Assembly: GCA_002238505.1 (NCBI GenBank)
Contig: MPMM01000008.1
Span: 34,589-98,588 of the forward strand
Length of the DNA: 64,000 bases
Direction of reading: 5' to 3'
Source of the DNA: SAR202 cluster bacterium bin22
GTDB lineage: Bacteria > Chloroflexota > Dehalococcoidia > Lucifugimonadales > UBA3495
Position numbers and translations under genes: made by a program. Numbering within the stretch: the stretch's first letter is position 1; each line of letters begins with the position of its first letter. The notes beneath the pieces are model-generated. The model was not told the DNA's origin, made no database searches, and worked only from the letters and a program-made list of their open reading frames with translations. Below are positions 723-14,570 of the stretch, one piece after another.

Positions 723-980
723 ATGCGAAAGAAACACCGAGAAACGTTGGCCGCGATTTTCCGCCACCCCACTCCGTCGGACATAAGGTGGCAGGACGCC
801 ATGGCATTGTTGCAGGCCTGTGGGGCCGAGATTGAAGAACGAGGAGGTTCGATGACGGCTGTGCTCCTCAACGATGAGTTGATATTGTTGCATCGGCCTC
901 ATCCAGGCAACGAGATTGACAAGGGTGCTGTGGCTTCGCTGCGCAGGTTCTTGGGGCAAGTTGGCATCGGGCCAACCTGA
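723..980 (+). CDS. hicA: HicA-family toxin (mRNA interferase type)
   Basis: 85-aa ORF. N-terminus 'KHRETLAAIFRHPTPSDIRWQDAMALLQACGAEIEERGGS' and C-terminus 'LHRPHPGNEIDKGAVASLRRFLGQVGIGP' fit the HicA subfamily consensus as I recall it. It lies 14 nt upstream of a HicB-type ORF, the usual toxin-first hicAB order. Confidence 0.75.
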   Translation: MRKKHRETLAAIFRHPTPSDIRWQDAMALLQACGAEIEERGGSMTAVLLNDELILLHRPHPGNEIDKGAVASLRRFLGQVGIGPT

Positions 981-994
981 AAGGAGGTAGATAG

Positions 995-2470
995 ATGGAA
1001 TATAACGGGTACCACGCGGTTGTGACCTTCGACGAAGAGTTAGGTATCCTTCACGGAGAAGTAATCAACACGCGCGACGTGATTACCTTCCAAGGAAAAT
1101 CTGTGGACGAGTTAGAGCAGTCCTTCAGAGCCTCGGTAGGAGAGTACCTCAAGATATGTGAAGAGAGAGGGCGAGCGCCTGACAAACCCTTCTCTGGACG
1201 GGTAGTTCTACGTATGGAACCAGAGACGCATCGTGCCGTTGCTGGGGCCGCTAGGATCAGCAGAAAGAGCCTCAATTCCTGGATCTTGGAAGCGATTGAC
1301 GGCCATCTGACTCGCGCTGATGAAGAGAAGGATCCGATAGAATGCGACCTCCAGTTGACTGCCTTGCCTGCCGACTCCGCATTCGAAGCATTTTTGGACG
1401 AAGTTTCACTACGGAATGGTGGGCAGGACCCGGTTAGTCCTGTCATACCCTTCTGGGTAGATCTTCACAACGGGCGCATATGGGCCAGCGACGTCCGGCC
1501 GGCTCATGAAGTCTTTACATTCGAGGCCAGGGCGCCCTATCACCACCCGGTCAGATACAGCCCATTGAGTGAGTTCCTCACAGATAAAGTGAACCTTAAT
1601 CAGAGCCGGCTGGATCGATTGGCAACCAGCGTCGGCGCGATAAACAGTCAGCTCAAAGAGCAACTAGCCGGCTACCAGAGCCTGCACCGGCATGGCTCTT
1701 ATGCCTCGGGGACTCTCATCAAGCCAGGGGGCGACAAAGGCGAGTACGACGCGGACATTCTGGTCGTGATGAACCAGAACTCTCAGTGGGAACCCAAAGA
1801 CTACCTCCTTGAGGTCCGCCGCACTTTGGCGACCAACAAGACTTACGCCGATAAACTAAGGTTGAAGACCAGATGTGTTACTGTGGACTATCCTGGGGAT
1901 TTTCACTTGGATGTGGTGCCGCGATTGGAGATGGAGGGCAAGCATTACGTCTGCAACCGGATTGACAACAAATTCGAGGAAACTGATGGCGATGGGTTCA
2001 GGGACTGGTTCAACGAAAAGAACCGCATCACCGATGGCAATTTGAAGCGGGTAGTCAGGTTGCTGAAATACCTCCGGGACCACAAGAACAGCTTCGCCGC
2101 CGAGTCGATTCTGCTGACCACCCTTGCCGGCAACACCATTAAGGCGTCGGATGAAGGGAAGGAAGAAGTGAGTACTGTTGCTGACACTCTGGTCACCGTC
2201 CTCACCCGAATGGACGATTACCTGCAGCAGCAACCCAGCATGCCAGAGATCAAGAATCCTGTTCTGGACACGGAAGACTTTGATCGGCACTGGAACCAGC
2301 GGAAATACGTGAACTTCAAGAACCGTGTGCACTCGTACGCCCAAACAGCGAAAAGGGCCAATAAGGAAGTCTACGGCGAAAAGGAGATCAAACTGTGGCG
2401 CGAACTCTTCGGTGACGCCTTTGGCGAACCCGCAAGCTCTGGCGGTAGTGGCCGGTTCGTGGAGCGGTAG
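995..2470 (+). CDS. HicB antitoxin fused to a SMODS/CD-NTase-like nucleotidyltransferase (single 491-aa ORF)
   Basis: aa 1-~107 'MEYNGYHAVVTFDEELGILHGEVINTRDVITFQGKSVDELEQSF..YLKICEERGRAPDKPFSGRVVLRM..RKSLNSWILEAI' form a full HicB with an RHH-like tail. aa ~190-491 carry the Pol-beta NTase signature: G234-S235, D252xD254 ('GSYASGTLIKPGGDKGEYDADILVV'), D306 ('HLDVVP'), then 'LKRVVRLLKYLRD' and a C-terminal 'WRELFG', as in SMODS/CD-NTases. There is no stop codon between the two parts. Confidence 0.7.
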   Translation: MEYNGYHAVVTFDEELGILHGEVINTRDVITFQGKSVDELEQSFRASVGEYLKICEERGRAPDKPFSGRVVLRMEPETHRAVAGAARISRKSLNSWILEAIDGHLTRADEEKDPIECDLQLTALPADSAFEAFLDEVSLRNGGQDPVSPVIPFWVDLHNGRIWASDVRPAHEVFTFEARAPYHHPVRYSPLSEFLTDKVNLNQSRLDRLATSVGAINSQLKEQLAGYQSLHRHGSYASGTLIKPGGDKGEYDADILVVMNQNSQWEPKDYLLEVRRTLATNKTYADKLRLKTRCVTVDYPGDFHLDVVPRLEMEGKHYVCNRIDNKFEETDGDGFRDWFNEKNRITDGNLKRVVRLLKYLRDHKNSFAAESILLTTLAGNTIKASDEGKEEVSTVADTLVTVLTRMDDYLQQQPSMPEIKNPVLDTEDFDRHWNQRKYVNFKNRVHSYAQTAKRANKEVYGEKEIKLWRELFGDAFGEPASSGGSGRFVER

Positions 2471-3162
2471 CATGGTCTCCATCGCCGCGGGACCGGAAAT
2501 TGTCACCGTCGGAGAACTGCGGCAAGTTCAAACTTTGAAGGTTGGACCCGGGTCCAACTAGCGTTTAGACCCGCCGCACCAGTGCAACAATCTTTAGGCG
2601 AATTTGACGGCCCTCCACCAGAATGTTGACAAGTGAGCTAATACGGCATTCCAAGAGCCATAACCAGAAACGCACACGATCTTGGTCGTTAGGAACGTAG
2701 GTGCTATCGGGACACCGTGTTGACCAGCGCGATGATCGACTCTACCGGAAGGATTGCTTTGAATATCCGCAAGTCCCAATATTTGGGGGCTGCCAGGGCG
2801 AAATTTCAGCTGTACCTGGTGGCTACCATGCCTAACCTGACCTTGGTGGCGAGAAAACCGGGCGGGCGGAACAGGCGGCGTTACCAGCAGCTGGGACACT
2901 TCTGTATGGAGGTGGACCATTCCTCCTTTGATTGCTTCCATGGGCGGCCAGATCGAGTCTTGATACCGGACTGGCTTGCACTGGCATCATCTTTGGAGTA
3001 CATGTCTCCGAGCAAGTATTCCTCGTCAAAGTTCTGCCGGGGGAGTGCAGAATTAACTACCATTTAGTCATTCGTACATGACCCGCACGCTGAGGCCAGC
3101 GAGCGAGCCGGAGCCTTCGGACCGCGTGACGTTAGCATAGAGAGCTTCCCCAGGAGGATCAT

Positions 3163-4020
3163 TTGATACAAGGAACAACCGTCATCCGGGAGGGAGCTAG
3201 GCGAGATATAGTCGACCTGATTCTTCTCAGGGGAGTGCCCTTTCACGGGCGTCTCAACTGCATGGATTTCCTTAAACGGGTCTGGCCTCTCGAAGAGATG
3301 CCGTCGGAGGACCATCGGTTCCGTACTGCGACCGGCGATATAGCGACTCACATTGGCTTCCGCGACTGGGACGACTCACACCTCCTTTTGGAGCGTTTGA
3401 AGCTAGCACGTGGACCCGACGAGGAGTTCCTGCGGTTTATTGAGGAGGTAGTGCACCCGTTGGTCGTCCCCGATGAAACGGAAGTGCTCAGCCTAGTTGC
3501 AGCCATCAACGGGCCCCTCGGAAGAGAAGGCTATCATCTTGTCGAAACAGACCGGATTTCCGGGAAGACCGTTTATGGGGCCAAACCGGTTACTTTCGTG
3601 CGGGCAGATCCTGACCCGACACCGTGGGAGAAGGTCGACAGGCAGGCTAACGCTATGCGTGAGCAACTTACGCTCGCCTTGTCTCACGGTGCGGCTGAGG
3701 AAGGGTATCAGGTCGTCGGCCATCTTGGGCGTGAGGTGATGATTTCACTTGCCCAAGCAGTGATTGACCCATCCGAAGCCATCGGCGAAGACGGCAAGCG
3801 CCCAAGCGAGACCGACGCAGTCCGATTGCTCGATGCCTACATCGGAAGGACATTGCCCGGCAGTGGCCATGAAGCTCTACGAAGGGCTGTCCGCGGAGTC
3901 GTTCAGGCCACAAGCGCGGTTCTACACGTCCGTAGCGCAACATACAAAGACGCCCTGCTGGCAGTGGAACTCGTCTCCGCCACTGTTCACCTCACGCACA
4001 TACTCGCAAACTATCCCTAG
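3163..4020 (+). CDS. AbiJ-N-terminal-domain-like protein with helical, possibly HEPN-like C-terminal half
   Basis: TTG start 5 nt after AGGAGG (3152-3157). The N-terminal half 'FLKRVWPLEEMPSEDHRFRTATGDIATHIGFRDWDDSHLLLERLKLARGPDEEFLRFIEEVVHPLVVP..LVAAINGPLGREGYHLVETDRISGKTVYG' matches the AbiJ-NTD3-type pattern from memory. The C-terminus is 'LHVRSATYKDALLAVELVSATVHL'. The CDS call is firmer than the function call. Confidence 0.5.
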   Translation: MIQGTTVIREGARRDIVDLILLRGVPFHGRLNCMDFLKRVWPLEEMPSEDHRFRTATGDIATHIGFRDWDDSHLLLERLKLARGPDEEFLRFIEEVVHPLVVPDETEVLSLVAAINGPLGREGYHLVETDRISGKTVYGAKPVTFVRADPDPTPWEKVDRQANAMREQLTLALSHGAAEEGYQVVGHLGREVMISLAQAVIDPSEAIGEDGKRPSETDAVRLLDAYIGRTLPGSGHEALRRAVRGVVQATSAVLHVRSATYKDALLAVELVSATVHLTHILANYP

Positions 4021-4316
4021 CTATTTGGCCAGAGAGTCGAGGCTGTCGGATGGGCGGGGATACCCGTGGCAACAAGGGTAGCGAGGGCTGAGTATGCGGG
4101 AAGAACGGTCGGAGCAGCGGGGTTTGTGCGAAGCCGACAGTTTGTATTTGAACCACGTATGAGGGGACACCTGGACGGGCTGCCTTTCATCTGAGGCGAT
4201 CACATTCTCAGCGGGGAGTTTGACCCTGCGTAAAGCCTACTTGCGTATCTGCCGAGAGTGAACTACAAGAGAGTAACAGAGTCATTTCTCTGTAACTAGG
4301 GAAAAATAGGCGAAGG

Positions 4317-5555
4317 TCACGAGGGGCAATTTAATAAAGCCGCCGACCGATAGATTCCTATCGCGTCTGACTGAACGTGCTCGTAGGTCTGAACCGGACC
4401 CAGGGTGTTCAACAGTTGACCTACGAGCATAGCCAGTCCAACTGGAACCGCCATGAATAGATGGACCCGTCCGCCGGTTGAGTACTCGCTCCGGGCCCTG
4501 CGGGCCGCCTCAATTGTCTTCCGGGCAAGGTCGACAGCTTGGCCAGGGGTGTCCAAGGTGGCTCCCTGCCTGCTGTTGTGGTGGTTGAGATGCACGTAGG
4601 CTCTGAATGGACCAACTTCCCCCACCGACGACGCAACTGCCTGAGTGACGTCATTGTTGACGGAAACTAGAACTGCCAAATCGTCAGATCCCAGTTCTCC
4701 TTCCAGGATGTTGATTGAAAAGCCAGCATCTTCACGGCCGCAACTCAGGTTCCAAATTTGGCAATTGCCGTCGGGCATTCGCTGTTCCCAAGCGGTTTCG
4801 ATGCCGGAAGTGGCCATAAACTCAAAGCCCAAGGCAGTAGCTGCTGGCAGCGACGCGAATCCGCAGATCAATAGCTTTCTGTGGGGGAGCACTTGCTCGA
4901 CGGTGCTTCTTACATCGGTCAGGGCCGGCAGCAACTTCCGCTGCCAGTCCGCGGCAGACGCTTCACGGTTATAATCTCCTCCGAACCTGTGGCTCCAGTC
5001 GATTGCCAATGCCGACCCAAGTTGGGGTCCCATGGCCCGTCTGGTATTGAACGATATCCTCAGTGGCTCGCCTTGCGGCAGTCGTGCATCTATTGCCTGC
5101 AATCGCTGTTTGAGTACCTGATTCGCCACCCTTGAAATATCCGCATCTGTGGCAGGATCTGCGTCGAGCTTGATCGTGTTCCAGTTGGCTATATTGGTCA
5201 GGCTTACGCTGTTTCGTATCGCCTGCGCAGCTTCCTGGTAACCGAGACCGCCAGCGGCAACAGGCACCACAAAGAATCCGTCAGCCCTGCCGTGTCGTTC
5301 AAAGGCTATGGGCGCCTCGACGTTCCGTATCATCAGGGAGTCAGCCGTTTCAGGACTCATCCAGAGCACCACGTTGGCAATACCATCGTCTCGCAGGACC
5401 CTGCGAAGTTCCCTTTCGGTGGGTTCCGTGTTCAAGTCGTCGACGTCGCGCCAGGTGGGAATTCCCCGTTCGCGCTGCGCGGCAATTAAACGGGCGCATT
5501 CATCGCTTCGGCTCCTGCGATAACTGAGAAAGGAACGGCCGGTTGGGTCAGTCAT
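4317..5555 (-). CDS. CBASS effector, TIR-SAVED
   Basis: N-terminal TIR-like 'FLSYRRSRSDECARLIAAQRERGIPTWRDVDDL...VVLWMSPETADSLMIRNVEAP'. The C-terminal ~250 aa are SAVED-like and end 'VHLFMAVPVGLAMLVGQLLNTLGPVQTYEH'. Overlaps cap3 by 8 nt and is the last gene of the operon. Confidence 0.8.
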   Translation of the reverse strand: MTDPTGRSFLSYRRSRSDECARLIAAQRERGIPTWRDVDDLNTEPTERELRRVLRDDGIANVVLWMSPETADSLMIRNVEAPIAFERHGRADGFFVVPVAAGGLGYQEAAQAIRNSVSLTNIANWNTIKLDADPATDADISRVANQVLKQRLQAIDARLPQGEPLRISFNTRRAMGPQLGSALAIDWSHRFGGDYNREASAADWQRKLLPALTDVRSTVEQVLPHRKLLICGFASLPAATALGFEFMATSGIETAWEQRMPDGNCQIWNLSCGREDAGFSINILEGELGSDDLAVLVSVNNDVTQAVASSVGEVGPFRAYVHLNHHNSRQGATLDTPGQAVDLARKTIEAARRARSEYSTGGRVHLFMAVPVGLAMLVGQLLNTLGPVQTYEHVQSDAIGIYRSAALLNCPS

Positions 5556-6060
5556 TCATAATCTCCATCAAGCTTTGAGGCCCTTCGGGATCTAGCCTTA
5601 ACGTTCCCTGCTGGCGAGGGAAGACATGGGCCGTCAGAGCATAGCCATTACCGACGACCAGCAGGAGTGGTTCGGGACAATTGGCCTGGTCGCTGTTGGC
5701 AATCTCCTGCATCCGCCTGACGTCTTCGGCGCTTGGTTCTGGGGAGCTTCCCGGGTGGTAGTGCCATTCTCCCAGGTAGTACTCTTCCTTGGGCCACAGG
5801 GCCCGAAGGAGTTCCTGTAGTCCCTGGGTGCCCCGGTAGAAGGAAGTCCGTTTCCGCTGTGAGTCGGACGGCGGACCGGTAACGCGGGTTACGGTCGCGG
5901 TGTCGAGCCCAGCGTTGTATTGACCAATCAGCACACCACCGGTCTCCAGCGGGTGAGAAGCCAGGCACAAATGCCTGATTGTCCCCAACTGGTCATCACC
6001 AATGACCATTCGGAACCGCCCGTCCGGGGACCCGTAGGCAACGTCACCTCGGCAAGCCAT
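5548..6060 (-). CDS. cap3: CBASS Cap3, JAB/JAMM isopeptidase
   Basis: JAMM motif 'ETGGVLIG' ... 'GEWHYHPGSSPEPSAED' (E, HxH, S, D). 170 aa. Overlaps cap2 by 17 nt. Confidence 0.85.
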   Translation of the reverse strand: MACRGDVAYGSPDGRFRMVIGDDQLGTIRHLCLASHPLETGGVLIGQYNAGLDTATVTRVTGPPSDSQRKRTSFYRGTQGLQELLRALWPKEEYYLGEWHYHPGSSPEPSAEDVRRMQEIANSDQANCPEPLLLVVGNGYALTAHVFPRQQGTLRLDPEGPQSLMEIMND

Positions 6061-7852
6061 CGCTCTCGATCATTCTGATGCCCGTGAAGTTTCCGCCTTC
6101 GCTTTCCTGCTGCTCCAGAACGACAAAAATTGGAACCGTCGGGGGGCTGCCGATGGCCCATTCGATGAGCCTGACGGCGGCGGCGGTCATCATCCAGACG
6201 TCATCTATGCGGGCTGGATGCCTTGGGTGCCAGCAGCCAGGGCCGTCACGCGGTAGTTCGTTTGGGTCGTAATCCTCCCTCTCCAAACGAAGCCAGGGCT
6301 GAAGATGTTCCGTGAACTCTTCGCCGGGGAACGACGTACCGTGCGCGGCAAAGAAATACAGTCGGCGGGCGTGCAGGCCTAGCGAGACCGATATGAAGGT
6401 CTTGCTGTTGCGCCAGGCGAACCGGCTCATCGCTGCTATTGTTTCGTCATCCCCGGTGGTATCAATGACGACGCCTGCGCTGTCTATGCATTCGGGGCTC
6501 TGGGCAGCATCGGGTGGGAATGCTTCATCGAGGCCTGTGACTTGAGTGTGCAGCGTAGCGTCTCTGAGCCTGTCGGCCACCCCGGTTGCCTTTGCCCGGC
6601 CGATATCCGAAACCTGCAAGGTATGCCGCACCAGATTTCCAGCTTCCAGAAGGTCATGGTCGATAACGGCGAGATTACGGACACCGGCGCGAGCCAGCAT
6701 CTCGGACAGCACCGAGCCGACCGCACCCGCCCCTATGATGAGAGTTGGACTATGGGCTGCCACATCACTCAATCTGCCCCTGACGGAAATCTCTTCCTGG
6801 TGCCAGTTTTCAGTGGTGATCCACTGCAGAGCGGCGCCATCGGGTATGGCGCTTTGCTTATACTCCAGCCACTTGCCTTGCTCGTTGTTTCGGAATCCGG
6901 ACTGTATCCCGAAAATCTGGTCAGGAAGTCTCAGGGCAAGCCAGTGCATCCTCCGGTCCGGCCCATCCACTCTCTCCGGAATGGGAAAACCGATGAGCAG
7001 CATGGTGTAATTTGGGGGTGCCACAACGGCCGAACGCAAGAGTTTGTCCAGATCGATGGACTGCTCTTTCAACACCTGTCTGAGTTCACCCCACGAGGCC
7101 GGTACTTGATAGGGCTTCAATATAGGCGCACTCTCTGATCTGACCCAAACAACTGACTGTCGCCCTCGGGAATCCAAGCCCCGACCCCACTCCTGGTCGA
7201 TGGCCGTGCGGCCTTTTCCTACATCGAATCTGGTGACTGCCAAGATTGATGAAGCTGTTTCCAGGATCTCCATGTGGGCTTCTCCACATCGCTTGCCGCT
7301 AACTTGCCATTGCTCCAGGGTTGCGCCGCTCTCGGCGAAGACAACCTTCGTTATTTCCCCCGAGGGGACGAAAGGCAGTTCGTAGTAGTCGCCAGCCTCG
7401 ACAAGTTCATCGCGCGAAGCTAATTCAATCCAGGTTCGTGCTCGCTCCACATGCCAGGCCAAATTGCTGGAGGCTTCCGCTGGCTCGATGTCATACCCCC
7501 GTCGCCGCAGCGGCGCCGCTTCGGTCCAGGTGCACAACTTGCCCGTCCGCCAAGGGCAATCCGGTTTGCCAACTCCATTGAAGTTCTGATGGGGAAACGT
7601 TTGTGTTATTCCTCCCACCTTGGCAGGGAAGATGCCGATGCTGTCGTCCGGGTAGTCGTCGCCGACGAGAACGAACCAATCCGTCACCCGTGGTATTGGG
7701 CCACTGTCTACCGTATCCGCTGCAATGCGGAGATGGACTGCCCAGCGTCGCTCCCGCGAATACCACTTTGGCCCTTCCGATGTTATTACACCGGGCAGGT
7801 CTGCCAGGGAAGACAGGCCTGCCCGAAGTTTGTCGTTTAGCTGCATTTGCAC
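6044..7852 (-). CDS. cap2: CBASS Cap2, E2-E1 fusion (ubiquitin-transferase-like)
   Basis: N-terminal E2-like 'FPHQNFNGVGKPDCPWRTGKLCTW'. Central ThiF/E1 Rossmann fold 'LIIGAGAVGSVLSEMLARAGVRNLAVIDHDLLEAGNLVRH'. 602 aa. Confidence 0.85.
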   Translation of the reverse strand: MQMQLNDKLRAGLSSLADLPGVITSEGPKWYSRERRWAVHLRIAADTVDSGPIPRVTDWFVLVGDDYPDDSIGIFPAKVGGITQTFPHQNFNGVGKPDCPWRTGKLCTWTEAAPLRRRGYDIEPAEASSNLAWHVERARTWIELASRDELVEAGDYYELPFVPSGEITKVVFAESGATLEQWQVSGKRCGEAHMEILETASSILAVTRFDVGKGRTAIDQEWGRGLDSRGRQSVVWVRSESAPILKPYQVPASWGELRQVLKEQSIDLDKLLRSAVVAPPNYTMLLIGFPIPERVDGPDRRMHWLALRLPDQIFGIQSGFRNNEQGKWLEYKQSAIPDGAALQWITTENWHQEEISVRGRLSDVAAHSPTLIIGAGAVGSVLSEMLARAGVRNLAVIDHDLLEAGNLVRHTLQVSDIGRAKATGVADRLRDATLHTQVTGLDEAFPPDAAQSPECIDSAGVVIDTTGDDETIAAMSRFAWRNSKTFISVSLGLHARRLYFFAAHGTSFPGEEFTEHLQPWLRLEREDYDPNELPRDGPGCWHPRHPARIDDVWMMTAAAVRLIEWAIGSPPTVPIFVVLEQQESEGGNFTGIRMIESDGLPR

Positions 7853-7859
7853 GATACGG

Positions 7860-8891
7860 TTATCCGAATCGGCCCCCTCTCAGCTGGCTGGGTTGCTCAG
7901 GTCGGGTGTAGCCACGCTGGTTAGGTCGCAAAGGGTACCGGTTGCCAAAAAGCTGTTGCCAGCGCTGTGCGCTTTCGGCGGAACTGGTACTATTCATTGC
8001 CTGCCGAGCCACCTTGGCAGCCTTCTGGGACTTCCCGTGAAACTGGTCAAAGTCCTGACCGGTGATGCGCTTCATAACATTCTGCTCAGGCACACCGCGG
8101 TCCGGCGAAAAAGGGACCTGGCCCGAACTGGCGAACATTTGGTATCGCCGGTCAATTTCTTCGACGGTTTCCGTGAAGGCCTGGGCCAGGCTGGTGACCC
8201 CATCGGGGCAACAATCGCCGACGATGTGCTCCAGCGGGTAGCTTTTGGGATATTCCTGCTCCGGATGCTGGGACTGCCACCACCACTTGACCAGCCGCAC
8301 CACTGGCGTGTAATGGCCATTTGTCTTACTGTTCTTCTCCTGCGTCCACCTGATCTGCTCCCTGGGATGTGTGCGTTGCCAGTTGTGGGCCTCCCTGTCA
8401 GGAATCCACAGAGGTTCAGTCTTCCACTCCTGGCTGCCGTTCAAGGAGTCCAAGCCGGCGTACTCTTGCGCGAGTTCCGCCAGCAGGAGCCGCTCTTCCG
8501 TTTCAGACGGAGCTGAGGTGAGCACCACATCCAGCTTTACGCGAGCCATTTCGATGCCGATAGAACGGCCTTTCTTCTTCCATCTGCCGGGGTAGTGTCG
8601 GTTCAGGAAGGGAACCAGCAGATTCATCGCCTGTTCCGGGGTGAATTTGTGCCGGTCGACCCGGGTAACCACTACCACATCCACGTCCGGCTTGTCACCG
8701 CCTTCTGGACGTATACTGGTGTGGCGCCGGTAGCTGCCCTGGAGGAAGGTCTCAACAATCAGCGATTTAAGATCCTCGTCCGCCATGAGTCGTTCTCGAA
8801 GGCGGATATGAGCGTCCCGCAGTGCGCTCTGTTGAGTGTCAGTAGGGCTGATTTCGCTCACCAGTTCTCTCAATTGGTCGTTCAATTCCAT
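7860..8891 (-). CDS. CBASS CD-NTase (cGAS/DncV-like nucleotidyltransferase)
   Basis: 'FLQGSYRRHTSIRPEGGDKPDVDVVVV' (G52-S53, D69xD71) and 'KLDVVL' (D121). The C-terminus ends '...QLRGGRFG', a terminal Gly as expected for Cap2-dependent conjugation. GGAGG RBS (complement of 8897-8901). First gene of the operon. Confidence 0.8.
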   Translation of the reverse strand: MELNDQLRELVSEISPTDTQQSALRDAHIRLRERLMADEDLKSLIVETFLQGSYRRHTSIRPEGGDKPDVDVVVVTRVDRHKFTPEQAMNLLVPFLNRHYPGRWKKKGRSIGIEMARVKLDVVLTSAPSETEERLLLAELAQEYAGLDSLNGSQEWKTEPLWIPDREAHNWQRTHPREQIRWTQEKNSKTNGHYTPVVRLVKWWWQSQHPEQEYPKSYPLEHIVGDCCPDGVTSLAQAFTETVEEIDRRYQMFASSGQVPFSPDRGVPEQNVMKRITGQDFDQFHGKSQKAAKVARQAMNSTSSAESAQRWQQLFGNRYPLRPNQRGYTRPEQPSQLRGGRFG

Positions 8892-13016: not shown

Positions 13017-14285
13017 TCAGTGAATGGTGCCGGACGCAGTTTTAGCCTTTTTGGTTATTCTCTTTTTGCCTCTTCGCCAACTACGCATGACTGGCATTGG
13101 TTTGGGTATCACAAAATTGGCCCAGCCTTGCATCAAGGACCTTCTCTTGTTAAATAGGTCACTCCTGGCGTAGGCCGTCTCCGTAGAATTACCCAGATTA
13201 TGGGCCAGAGCCGCCTCCCCTATTGCCCAGGGCGTGTCCGTCTGCTCCATGACCCAATCTCGAAAGCTGCTGCGGAAGCCGTGGGCCACGGCGGGAATTT
13301 CCAGCCGCCTGAGCAGGGTGGTGTAGGTCATGTCCGATAGTGGGCCGCCGTTCCTGCTGCCTGGAAACACCAGATCTCCGCACTCGAGCGCCAACTTCCT
13401 GGCCTCATCCAATATTCCCAAAGCCTGCCACGATAGTGGTACTCTGTGCTCCTTCCTTGCCTTCATGCGGTCTGCGGGAACGGTCCAAGTTTTGGAGTTC
13501 AAATCAATCTCAGACCACGAAGCCTTCCTCACTTCTCCGGAACGGGCTGCGGTAAGCACCAGGAACTCAAAGGAGAGTCGGGTCACTGCAGCGGCATTGG
13601 ATTTCCGCACTTTATCCAGGGCAGATGCGACTTCGGAGTAAGGTAGCGCCTGGTAGTGTTTCCTGGATTTAGTCCGCGGTGGCAAAACTCTGGTGATGGA
13701 CTTTCCCGCGGGATTATCGTCCCTCCACCCCTGGGCTATGGCCAAATCCAATACCGTTTCCATCCGCTGCCGAACTCGGCTGGCCGTCTCGGGTTTGGTG
13801 TGCCATATGGGAGTGAGGACCTGAAGGACATCCCCGCTGTTGATATCAGCCACCTTCCTGTTACCCAATACGGGGAATGCGTAAGTGGTCAGGGTATTCC
13901 GCCACTGAGCGGCGTGCTTGGCATTGGACCAGGTGGGGGCTCTCAGGACGATGACCTCCTCAGCAGCCTGGGCGAAGCTGGGACAGGAAGGCCGGCTCAG
14001 TTCAAGGGCTGCTTGATGTTTATCCGCCAAGGGGTCCAGCCCCTGCTTGATGGCTCTCTGATTTGAAGCAGCCTTCTCTCTGGCGTCTGCCAGTGACACC
14101 GACCCGAGGCTGCCCAAGCCGATGTTGTGGCGTTTGCCCTTGATGGTGACGCGTTGGACCCAATGTTTGGACCCGGACCGTTCCACCCGGAGAGTGAGGC
14201 CGTTGCCATCGGAATACTGTCCGGGTTCCGAAACAGTCCTGACCTGGGCGGCGGAAAGTCTGTGGGTTGGCGGCATGGGGTACAC
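13017..14285 (-). CDS. int: tyrosine integrase, P4-like (DUF4102 N-terminus)
   Basis: 'LSAAQVRTVSEPGQYSDGNGLTLRVERSGSKHWVQRVTIKGKRHNIGLGSLGSVSLADAREKA' is a typical P4-type arm-binding N-terminus. The C-terminal catalytic region includes 'HGFRSSFRDW' and '..LAH....TETAYARSD'. It lies adjacent to the tRNA 3' end. Confidence 0.9.
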   Translation of the reverse strand: MYPMPPTHRLSAAQVRTVSEPGQYSDGNGLTLRVERSGSKHWVQRVTIKGKRHNIGLGSLGSVSLADAREKAASNQRAIKQGLDPLADKHQAALELSRPSCPSFAQAAEEVIVLRAPTWSNAKHAAQWRNTLTTYAFPVLGNRKVADINSGDVLQVLTPIWHTKPETASRVRQRMETVLDLAIAQGWRDDNPAGKSITRVLPPRTKSRKHYQALPYSEVASALDKVRKSNAAAVTRLSFEFLVLTAARSGEVRKASWSEIDLNSKTWTVPADRMKARKEHRVPLSWQALGILDEARKLALECGDLVFPGSRNGGPLSDMTYTTLLRRLEIPAVAHGFRSSFRDWVMEQTDTPWAIGEAALAHNLGNSTETAYARSDLFNKRRSLMQGWANFVIPKPMPVMRSWRRGKKRITKKAKTASGTIH

Positions 14286-14478: not shown

Positions 14479-14570
14479 TGGCGGAGGGAGTGGGATTCGA
14501 ACCCACGATCCCAGTTTCCCAGGATAAGCGCTTAGCAGGCGCCCGCACTAGACCACTATGCGATCCCTCC
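14479..14570 (-). tRNA. tRNA-Ser (anticodon GCU)
   Basis: 92-nt cloverleaf read by hand on the minus strand: acceptor GGAGGGA/TCCCTCC, anticodon stem GGCGC/GCGCT with loop CU-GCU-AA, a long variable arm, T-arm GTGGG-TTCGAAT-CCCAC and an encoded CCA. Confidence 0.9.

Follow-up and report, generated by a model that had tools for sequence, protein, structure and literature searches.

Do two nucleotide cyclases that are encoded 5.4 kb apart in the same genomic island, and that both end in a sequence containing Gly-Arg-Phe, take part in one signalling pathway? This question is raised by a 64,000-nucleotide stretch of contig MPMM01000008.1 from SAR202 cluster bacterium bin22 (assembly GCA_002238505.1, positions 34,589 to 98,588), which we refer to as the window and in whose coordinates its features are given. 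The window carries a gene for a HicB antitoxin fused to a CD-NTase (cGAS/DncV-like nucleotidyltransferase) of the SMODS family (995-2470, plus strand, 491 residues) and an antiphage signalling system based on cyclic oligonucleotides (CBASS) with a CD-NTase of its own (7860-8891, minus strand, 343 residues). A reading of the DNA made without database searches, here termed the sequence-only reading, took both enzymes for paralogues with matching tails and proposed that the fusion is primed in trans by the neighbouring Cap2 and Cap3, or that it feeds the same TIR-SAVED effector. We favour, with moderate confidence, a different explanation, in which a tRNA-Ser integrative island in the genome of a member of the Dehalococcoidia houses two independent cyclic-nucleotide modules next to each other and in which the tail of the fusion is a relic of a lost, different Cap2 and not a handle for the neighbouring Cap2 and Cap3.

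Descent of the two cyclases

Both C-termini read as had been described, the CBASS enzyme ending in ...QLRGGRFG and the fusion in ...SSGGSGRFVER in their translations, and the landmarks noted in both proteins do follow each other in the same order (GSY...T.I.P.GGDK, which is HGSYASGTLIKPGGDKGEYDADILVV in the fusion and QGSYRRHTSIRPEGGDKPDVDVVVV in the CBASS enzyme, then LDVV, VVRL.K and W..LFG). These landmarks belong to the core motifs of the CD-NTase superfamily. Although both proteins match Pfam SMODS (E 9.5e-32 for the fusion and 5.9e-26 for the CBASS enzyme), their paralogy was overstated, as BLASTP aligns only 153 residues with 22% identity (E 3e-6). The best PADLOC cyclase models differ as well, as the fusion matches PDLC00793/00787 and the CBASS enzyme PDLC00822. 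On sequence grounds we place the two cyclases in different clades and do not regard them as close paralogues, in an approximate assignment that draws on PADLOC models, PDB sequence matches and Foldseek without a reference clade set. In the PDB, no close relative of the fusion's cyclase was found by sequence (best E 4.7e-13), and a Foldseek search with its AlphaFold2 model, in which the predicted local distance difference test (pLDDT) score is mostly 80-95 over the cyclase domain, returned Bacteroides fragilis CdnB (7ljo) as best match with a template modelling (TM) score of 0.78, followed by CdnD and CdnG (TM range 0.62-0.78). Motifs and model agree with a CD-NTase, which has a Pol-beta-like fold and a characteristic helical lobe at the C-terminus.

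In a database search, full HicB fusions formed 15 clusters with 67-96% identity, joined by P0016 as a sixteenth with a cut N-terminus. The search also returned many cyclases with about 75% identity to that of the fusion, which either stand alone (about 336 residues) or carry a C-terminal SEC-C-motif domain (about 575 residues in total) that corresponds to a CBASS E2 according to PADLOC (PDLC00872). A 576-residue cyclase-E2 of this kind is encoded in the genome of the window itself, on contig 44; it shares 74% identity with the fusion's cyclase over 288 residues and can, on this comparison, be regarded as its true paralogue. It belongs to a second CBASS (L016 5934-8786, minus strand), in which an intact gene for a 355-residue patatin follows that of the cyclase-E2 and which adjoins a type I restriction-modification system. 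A further SMODS match in this genome, the fourth, is weak (E 8.5e-07) and lies within a 264-residue open frame on contig 37 (G000:C37:51699-52019, L015/L017).

The stand-alone relatives lie in operons consisting of a patatin gene, a cyclase gene whose product ends in RRFG and a gene for a 517-residue Cap2-like protein (L077, L008). No JAB or Cap3 gene is in view in these operons (L077 11729-16469, where CapH- and CapP-like genes are found upstream, and L008 6950-10552), which look like a variant of type II CBASS with an E1-E2 enzyme but without isopeptidase. Their Cap2-like protein, the cognate enzyme of this cyclase clade, is 32% identical to the Cap2 of the window over only 120 residues. The type II CBASS that is linked to patatin in the same bacterial family, with its 336-residue cyclase (L077, L008), and its cyclase-E2 variant (contig 44, L009) are the closest known systems in terms of the cyclase, with 73-79% identity to that of the fusion, which nests among these stand-alone and E2-fused cyclases in a tree and whose tail opens with the same FG-x-x-SSGG. 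The fusion differs from the patatin-linked system by its N-terminal HicB and an 80-residue segment, by a tail that is shorter and without free terminal Gly, and by its surroundings, since no intact patatin, Cap2 or E2 gene adjoins the fusion cassette in the window. Monophyly of the HicB fusions in the cyclase tree was considered and rejected, as they are scattered across at least four positions in between stand-alone and E2-fused cyclases, with weak branch supports. In L077, the fusion is near-identical to the neighbouring cyclase over its last 50 residues, which together with the lack of monophyly we read as gene conversion with resident CBASS cyclases. Such conversion may explain the frequent place of the cassette beside CBASS operons.

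Origin of the C-terminal tail

The fusion ends in FGEPASSGGSGRFVER, and its tail (GEPASSGGSGRFVER, 2423-2470), read directly from the sequence, is predicted to be disordered with pLDDT values of 21-29 in the AlphaFold2 model. It contains Val at the position aligned with the terminal Gly of related enzymes, followed by Glu-Arg, and has no free C-terminal Gly or Ala. The CBASS enzyme, ending in ...PSQLRGGRFG, has a free terminal Gly, in a tail that aligns with ...TGRFA of Enterobacter cloacae CdnD. A GG.GRF core had been attributed to both tails, of which G-R-F is indeed shared, but the CBASS enzyme reads GGRFG and lacks a literal GG.GRF. Among 77 stand-alone relatives of the fusion's cyclase, nearly all readable tails consist of a Gly/Ser/Ala-rich linker of 40-50 residues ending in ...RPNEARRFG, and a few end in ...GFG; the exception to a terminal Gly among the relatives listed is P0030 with ...ARGRR. 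In E2-fused cyclases, the equivalent motif P(F/Y)AG is internal, just before the E2 domain, as illustrated in the contig-44 protein, where P-Y-A-G is the counterpart of the stand-alone RRFG terminus. In light of TGRFA in E. cloacae CdnD and RRFG in nearly all of the 77 relatives, the resemblance of the two tails is not due to chance, and it appears to reflect shared ancestry of a conserved C-terminal motif of type II CBASS and not a specific matching of these two genes. Tail motifs common to two cyclases of one island are thus not to be annotated as evidence of shared priming.

In the 15 clusters of HicB fusions and the N-terminally cut P0016, the tail SSGGSG-RF(V/A)(E/D)R(L) is present in eight (including one GRLVER and P0016), whereas six have no tail and stop right after the core LFGDxFG, ending in (K/N)FG (477 residues). 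One cluster, P0013, has retained the full linker, followed by ...EAQGFGQTP, and another, P0015, contains a diverged and extended tail. The junction DNA of P0013 (L006/L007) and that of stand-alone cyclase and cap2 align base for base. In P0013, the stop codon is changed from TAA to CAA, thus extending translation by three codons, and the first 49 codons of a Cap2-like gene are found at their canonical position (tblastn E 5e-4), where they are cut off by a transposase fragment of insertion sequence (IS) type. From this junction and the cap2 stub, we infer an ancestral cassette with the order hicA, hicB::cyclase, cap2, whose tail was the handle of that Cap2. The proposal that the fusion carries a handle of Cap2 type is therefore sound as a matter of probable descent, with the closest stand-alone relatives ending in RRFG and the gene of a Cap2-like E1-E2 enzyme following directly (L077, L008). 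Today the tail is most likely a decaying relic of this lost and different partner.

The underlying sequence of events would start from a long-type HicB antitoxin that became joined to a cyclase acquired from a patatin-linked lineage of type II CBASS that is common in this bacterial family and in which a long disordered Gly/Ser-rich tail ends in ...RRFG and the gene of the 517-residue Cap2-like protein comes directly after. The ancestral fusion would have kept both tail and cap2, as suggested by L006. Loss of cap2 would then have preceded the decay of the tail, which in the lineage of the window would have involved a cut of the linker to SSGGSG, a replacement of the terminal Gly by Val and a frame that is longer by two codons (Glu-Arg). 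The window-type tail is consistent with an in-frame linker deletion, a Gly to Val change (GGG to GTG) and the loss of the stop codon. The ratio of nonsynonymous to synonymous substitution rates (dN/dS) is about 1 in the tail, where it covers few sites (about 45), compared to 0.13-0.25 in the cyclase core. Within one tight clade of cyclases, the ...RFG terminus is invariant before a Cap2-like gene, internal when an E2 is fused, and apparently eroding in several independent ways after HicB fusion and Cap2 loss. The series of tails thus offers a natural experiment with the ubiquitin-like handle that bacterial cGAS-like enzymes carry.

Two candidates for further coding sequence downstream of the fusion were set aside. 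A tblastn alignment with the contig-44 cyclase-E2 that ran in frame through the stop codon to 2587 owes its extra 39 residues to a weak low-complexity match. A potential cap2 stub right after the stop (2474-2520, MVSIAAGPEIVTVGEL, compared to DLAAVGFEPVTIAGL in the Cap2-like gene) shows about 49% nucleotide identity and no tblastn match, and is suggestive only, so that we make no claim on it.

The tail would have a role at present if the HicB-cyclase were a pro-form, from which the neighbouring Cap3 (or Cap2) trims Glu-Arg for Cap2 to conjugate ...GRFV. This idea of priming in trans draws on the G-R-F motif that is common to the fusion and to the CdnD tail binding the E1 site of Cap2. In E. 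cloacae CdnD, with the tail ...KPAEPQKTGRFA, residues 375-381 occupy the Cap2 adenylation site, and Cap3 cuts a cGAS-GFP fusion exactly after the last cGAS residue, in a reaction that is disrupted by tail mutations (10.1101/2022.03.31.486616). The predicted disorder of the tail, its retention in eight orthologue clusters and the intact catalytic residues of the window's Cap2 and Cap3 all point in the same direction. However, the fusion contains Val where Gly or Ala is required. In the E2-CBASS of Serratia marcescens, the mutations G406V/L abolish the linkage between cGAS and E2 (10.1101/2022.05.25.493364), and G436E abolishes protection in Vibrio cholerae (10.1101/2022.03.31.486616). The S. 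marcescens system (CdnG-E2; 10.1101/2022.05.25.493364; PMC12948482) provides a precedent for a short extension after the conjugated Gly (G406-E407), with the one extra residue removed by its partner E2, and also for natural cyclase-E2 fusion proteins, but the extension there follows a Gly, whereas the fusion of the window has Val at this position and no E2 nearby. Priming in trans is further disfavoured by the distinct Cap2 that is cognate to this cyclase clade, and by the layout of the island, where the convergent cassette and CBASS operon have a patatin stub and an unrelated gene of AbiJ type between them.

Neighbourhoods of orthologous fusions

Whether the tail is associated with particular conjugation enzymes is reflected in nine types of neighbourhood that were compared, that of the window and eight others, with the related loci coming from Dehalococcoidia metagenome-assembled genomes (MAGs). 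In the window, the fusion ending in GRFVER is accompanied by a patatin stub and a CdnD-Cap2-Cap3-TIR-SAVED operon. The same ending is found in L001-3 (P0002), where hicA is split by an IS and a convergent frameshifted patatin is by eye very like that of contig 44, with no cyclase, E1, E2 or JAB gene present. Fusions ending in GRFAER (L004/5 of P0005, L030 of G184 and L031 of G189) lie next to a convergent operon of patatin, 319-residue cyclase and E2. The full tail extended by QTP (L006/7, P0013) is accompanied by the cap2 stub only, and the diverged tail (L078/79, P0015) by no CBASS gene. The ending GRFAERL (P0014) is found in fusions that stand alone between IS copies, with different flanks in L010 and L011. 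Fusions without tail are located directly upstream of capH, capP, patatin, a cyclase ending in RRFG and a cap2-like gene (L077, P0009), or beside nothing but a capH-like gene and a capP-like open reading frame (ORF) of 268 residues (L080, P0004, in which a catalytic Asp is lost). In L010 and L011, which originate from the same sample, an identical hicA/hicB-cyclase pair resides on two contigs and is in each case flanked by DDE_Tnp_1_4 transposase genes, suggesting that it has moved as part of a composite element. The full fusion is present in only 3 of the 203 genomes of the family, and a pattern scan of GTDB species representatives recovered the other two of those three genomes and no further carrier.

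Among the nine types, a CdnD-type Cap2 and Cap3 are confined to the window. The window's Cap3 gave no match as tblastn query in L001-L011, L030/L031, L077, L078 and L080, and there is no JAB protein among the called genes. The fusion carriers G184 and G189 contain only partial matches of the ThiF core to the model of the window's Cap2, none of them full-length and none thus representing a Cap2 of CdnD type, and no Cap2 or E2 gene lies beside the fusion in L001-3, L010/11, L078/79 and L080. The state of the tail shows no correspondence to whether Cap2 or E2 is present, and the sole fusion beside a Cap2-like gene (L077) is without flexible tail. Under the sequence-only reading, orthologues should keep the tail and co-occur with cap2 and cap3; instead, the tail is mutated, shortened, extended or deleted and most loci have no cap2 or cap3 nearby. 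In combination with Val at the position of Gly or Ala and a cognate Cap2 of another type, this makes priming of the fusion by its neighbours very unlikely.

Several observations nevertheless weigh against the tail being a mere leftover of a lost partner. Three of the nine types of neighbourhood, namely the window, L077 and that of L004, do contain an E1-E2 or E2 enzyme, and no more than about 14 aligned nucleotides support a deletion-plus-stop-loss origin of 'RFVER'. Eight clusters with an overall identity of only 70-96% have retained the G-R-F-(V/A)-(E/D)-R tail. Also at the level of DNA, the last 55 or so nucleotides of the fusion gene (window 2418-2473) are 82-95% identical to orthologues compared to 58-70% for the preceding 60 nucleotides of the cyclase, and synonymous sites have changed far less in the tail than in the cyclase core. 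This high conservation is not predicted by a purely neutral relic and possibly results from recent recombination or from a constraint acting on DNA or RNA. Finally, orthologues with GRFA|ER would, if trimmed, expose exactly the terminus of E. cloacae CdnD (GRFA), and the removal of C-terminal extensions by Cap3 and E2 enzymes has been described (10.1101/2022.03.31.486616; 10.1101/2022.05.25.493364; PMC12948482). A reading that ascribes a current function to the tail would view the cassette as a mobile plug-in second synthase, which recombines via its cyclase domain into or beside a resident CBASS and couples a toxin-antitoxin switch to cyclic-nucleotide signalling, with GRF(V/A)ER retained as pro-form handle that is processed by a resident E1-E2, E2 or JAB enzyme (in the window Cap2 and Cap3). 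We hold this to be distinctly unlikely and retain the view of two independent modules with a relic tail.

The likely receiver of the signal

As part of the mechanism proposed for two independent modules, the cis-encoded patatin would have been reduced to a stub at 2648-2746 (minus strand), and the receiver would probably be a patatin phospholipase. The stub comprises only the last 26-33 codons of a CapV-like patatin and was detected by tblastn with the contig-44 patatin, to which it is 58% identical over 26 residues (E 1.4e-05) and 48% over 33 residues. At the same convergent position, L001-3 contain a full-length but frameshifted patatin, and a 369-nucleotide alignment between these loci and the window, with 78% identity, covers the last 60 nucleotides of the patatin gene and about 310 nucleotides downstream of its stop. 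A patatin CBASS or its remnant adjoins the fusion in five of the nine neighbourhood types, and of the close relatives of the fusion's cyclase examined here, all are partnered by a patatin effector and none by SAVED. A patatin phospholipase is thus, as judged from these gene associations, probably the natural receiver of the fusion's cyclase. An intact patatin of the cognate type is found in this genome on contig 44 only, and elsewhere beside fusions in L077 and the L004 type. With the pairing of the relatives and the stub in the window, the contig-44 patatin, and not TIR-SAVED, would be the likeliest receiver.

The alternative, in which HicB-cyclase and CdnD-type enzyme synthesise an identical oligonucleotide, so that the fusion feeds TIR-SAVED, would account for both cyclases residing in the same island and for the purifying selection on a cyclase whose cis effector is lost, as some receiver must be needed. 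Cyclic dinucleotides are the signal for patatin effectors of CapV type, whereas for TIR-SAVED (7qqk) it is a cyclic trinucleotide. Added to the association of the close relatives with patatin, a nearest fold that is CdnB and not CdnD, and the 22% identity between the two cyclases, this makes such cross-talk highly improbable. An arrangement of two synthases and one effector, as envisaged in the sequence-only reading, does exist in L077 (hicA, hicB-NTase, capH, capP, patatin, cyclase, cap2), but there the cognate effector is patatin and not TIR-SAVED.

The toxin-antitoxin part of the cassette

The second feature that distinguishes the fusion from CBASS cyclases is its link to a HicAB type II toxin-antitoxin system, whose gene order of hicA followed by hicB is kept. 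The hicA toxin gene (723-980, plus strand, 85 residues; Pfam HicA_toxin E 7.3e-08, above cut-off) is located 14 nucleotides upstream of the fusion gene. The HicB antitoxin part (995-1309, residues 1-105) contains an N-terminal HicB fold and a ribbon-helix-helix (RHH) domain (Pfam HicB E 2.9e-14 at residues 51-101) and is followed by a segment of about 80 residues without family match (1310-1555, residues 106-187) and by the SMODS domain (1556-2422, residues 188-476; PADLOC PDLC00793 E 1.7e-105). In contrast to HicAB systems, the antitoxin of the window thus bears a C-terminal CD-NTase of 300 residues that looks active. The intervening segment shows low confidence in the AlphaFold2 model and a dN/dS of 0.3-0.6. 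It also terminates stand-alone HicB proteins of 182-190 residues, each with its own hicA, in G029, G070 and G176. The segment is therefore part of a long subtype of HicB, not a scar of the junction. The fusion would, by this comparison, consist of a complete long HicB joined to a cyclase that misses its first few residues. The stand-alone pairs of hicA and long hicB are located at L033 2525-3344, L034 3237-4079 and L032 3258-4048. In L033, the similarity to the fusion continues for about 20 residues beyond the stop codon, so some stand-alone long HicBs may be truncated fusions and not ancestors.

No description of a HicB with a CD-NTase or with SMODS was found in the literature searched, and for HicA and CBASS no such fusion was apparent from titles and the openings of abstracts. 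The HicA/HicB-cyclase cassette is thus an architecture that is not described in this literature. It recurs beside patatin CBASS operons and, if working as a unit, would connect cyclic-nucleotide immunity with control by a toxin-antitoxin pair. HicA may be a toxin and the HicB domain a DNA-binding antitoxin, which together regulate the cassette or keep it stable; alternatively, HicA may provide a second output.

The fusion appears to be maintained as a protein. Its catalytic residues GS, DxD and D are intact (GSYA, DADI, HLDVV) and are kept in 16 of 17 sequences of the fusion lineage (the window, the 15 HicB clusters and P0016), and dN/dS between divergent orthologues amounts to 0.04-0.08 in the HicB part and to 0.13-0.25 in the cyclase domain. 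Purifying selection and intact catalytic residues suggest that the cyclase domain is still a working enzyme. In the 477-residue fusion of P0004 (L080 10001-11434), the third catalytic Asp is lost (HLDVVP to HLAMVP) and the neighbouring CBASS consists of the CapH-like gene and the 268-residue ORF; this fusion looks like a decaying copy. One might extend such decay to the window and regard its cassette as a functionless remnant that is drifting to loss after cap2 and patatin were lost, as could be read from the patatin stub with a repeated element beside it, the decaying tail, the lost Asp in P0004 and the split hicA in L001-3. We see little chance of this, since the ORF of 491 residues is intact and under selection across HicB and cyclase, the catalytic residues are preserved in the window and nearly throughout the lineage, and the fusion persists in proteins with identities down to 67% and in three species-level genomes.

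Alternatively, the cassette might be a self-contained hybrid of toxin-antitoxin system and CBASS, in which HicA is the effector, the cyclase senses infection, and HicA is freed from HicB through cyclase activity, the cyclase product or turnover of the fusion. Such a hybrid would require no Cap2, patatin or SAVED and is compatible with a relic tail. It would explain why a hicA orthologue (80-92% identical) is located directly upstream of every fusion examined, why the two genes are found alone between IS elements in L010/L011 and lack CBASS genes in L006/7, apart from the cap2 stub, and in L078/79, and why both the HicB and the cyclase parts are under purifying selection; the absence of HicB with CD-NTase or SMODS in the literature searched likewise counts in its favour. 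Yet in L001-3 the fusion is still intact although hicA is split, patatin CBASS or its remnant is next door in five of nine neighbourhood types, and no nucleotide-binding domain was recognisable in HicA or HicB by domain scan. Moreover, read by eye, the HicA of the window has GSM where HicA usually has GSH, placing Met at the position of the usual histidine. We thus consider a self-contained hybrid unlikely, though with a chance that is still appreciable. The insertion splitting hicA at codon 59 is IS607-like and consists of a serine resolvase and a TnpB-like gene (L001 7953-9983, L003 5075-6648).

The type II CBASS operon and the surrounding island

On the minus strand, the second module (4317-8891) is an ordinary type II CBASS of CdnD type with all its components, a textbook system that by itself adds little. 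Its identification as neighbouring Cap2, Cap3 and TIR-SAVED genes was confirmed by Pfam and PADLOC. The CD-NTase (PADLOC PDLC00822 E 4.1e-129) has a readable GS...DxD...D active site (QGSY, DVDVV, KLDVV) and matches structures of E. cloacae CdnD (7ljl, 7d48, 7to3_C) with E about 1e-89 in an alignment that reaches the penultimate residue (GGRF compared to TGRF). By sequence it is an orthologue of E. cloacae CdnD, and its tail QLRGGRFG is encoded at 7863-7886. Cap2 (6044-7852; PADLOC E1-E2 PDLC00848 E 6e-183; PDB 7to3_A E 2.1e-72) contains Cys opposite both substituted catalytic positions of 7to3_A (C109A, C548A), whose identities have been reported (10.1101/2022.03.31.486616). Cap3 (5548-6060; PADLOC JAB E 6.9e-46; Pfam Prok-JAB E 5e-14) contains the JAMM motif HYHPGSSPEPSAED (HxHx7Sx2D), and the effector (4317-5555; PADLOC SAVED_TIR E 2.5e-69; Pfam SAVED E 1.1e-25) matches that of the TIR-SAVED type II CBASS with known effector structure (PDB 7QQK; E 3.9e-17). 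The operon follows the four-gene logic of the E. cloacae CdnD02-Cap2-Cap3-Cap4 system (PDB 7TO3; 10.1101/2022.03.31.486616), with which it shares a cyclase terminus ...GRF(G/A), both catalytic Cys of Cap2, the JAMM motif of Cap3 and a SAVED-containing effector. It differs in its effector, which is TIR-SAVED instead of the nuclease-SAVED Cap4, in the terminal residue of the cyclase, which is Gly instead of Ala, and in its host, a Dehalococcoidia MAG. By analogy, Cap2 would adenylate and conjugate the ...GRFG terminus, Cap3 would reverse the conjugation and TIR-SAVED would act as effector.

Between the two modules, about 690 base pairs (about 2471-3162) contain no convincing gene by ORF and domain scan apart from the patatin stub. 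A perfect 18-nucleotide palindrome, GTTGGACCCGGGTCCAAC (2541-2558), detected as inverted match in a blastn self-comparison, is located between the convergent fusion gene and the stub and might, from its sequence and position, possibly be their shared bidirectional terminator. Closer to the CBASS operon, a 285-residue protein with an AbiJ_NTD3 domain is encoded on the plus strand (3163-4020; Pfam E 6.4e-41), for which no match was found in the loci searched with it (L001-L011, L030/L031, L077, L078, L080). A sequence at about 2765-2978, downstream of the patatin stub, has four further copies elsewhere in the genome, which are located on contigs 50, 11, 44 and 26 and show 70-75% identity. No family was recognised for this repeat, which is probably the remnant of a mobile element that took out most of the patatin gene. 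At the far side of the CBASS operon, a P4-type integrase (13017-14285) is located beside a tRNA-Ser gene (14479-14570), which identifies the island as integrative.

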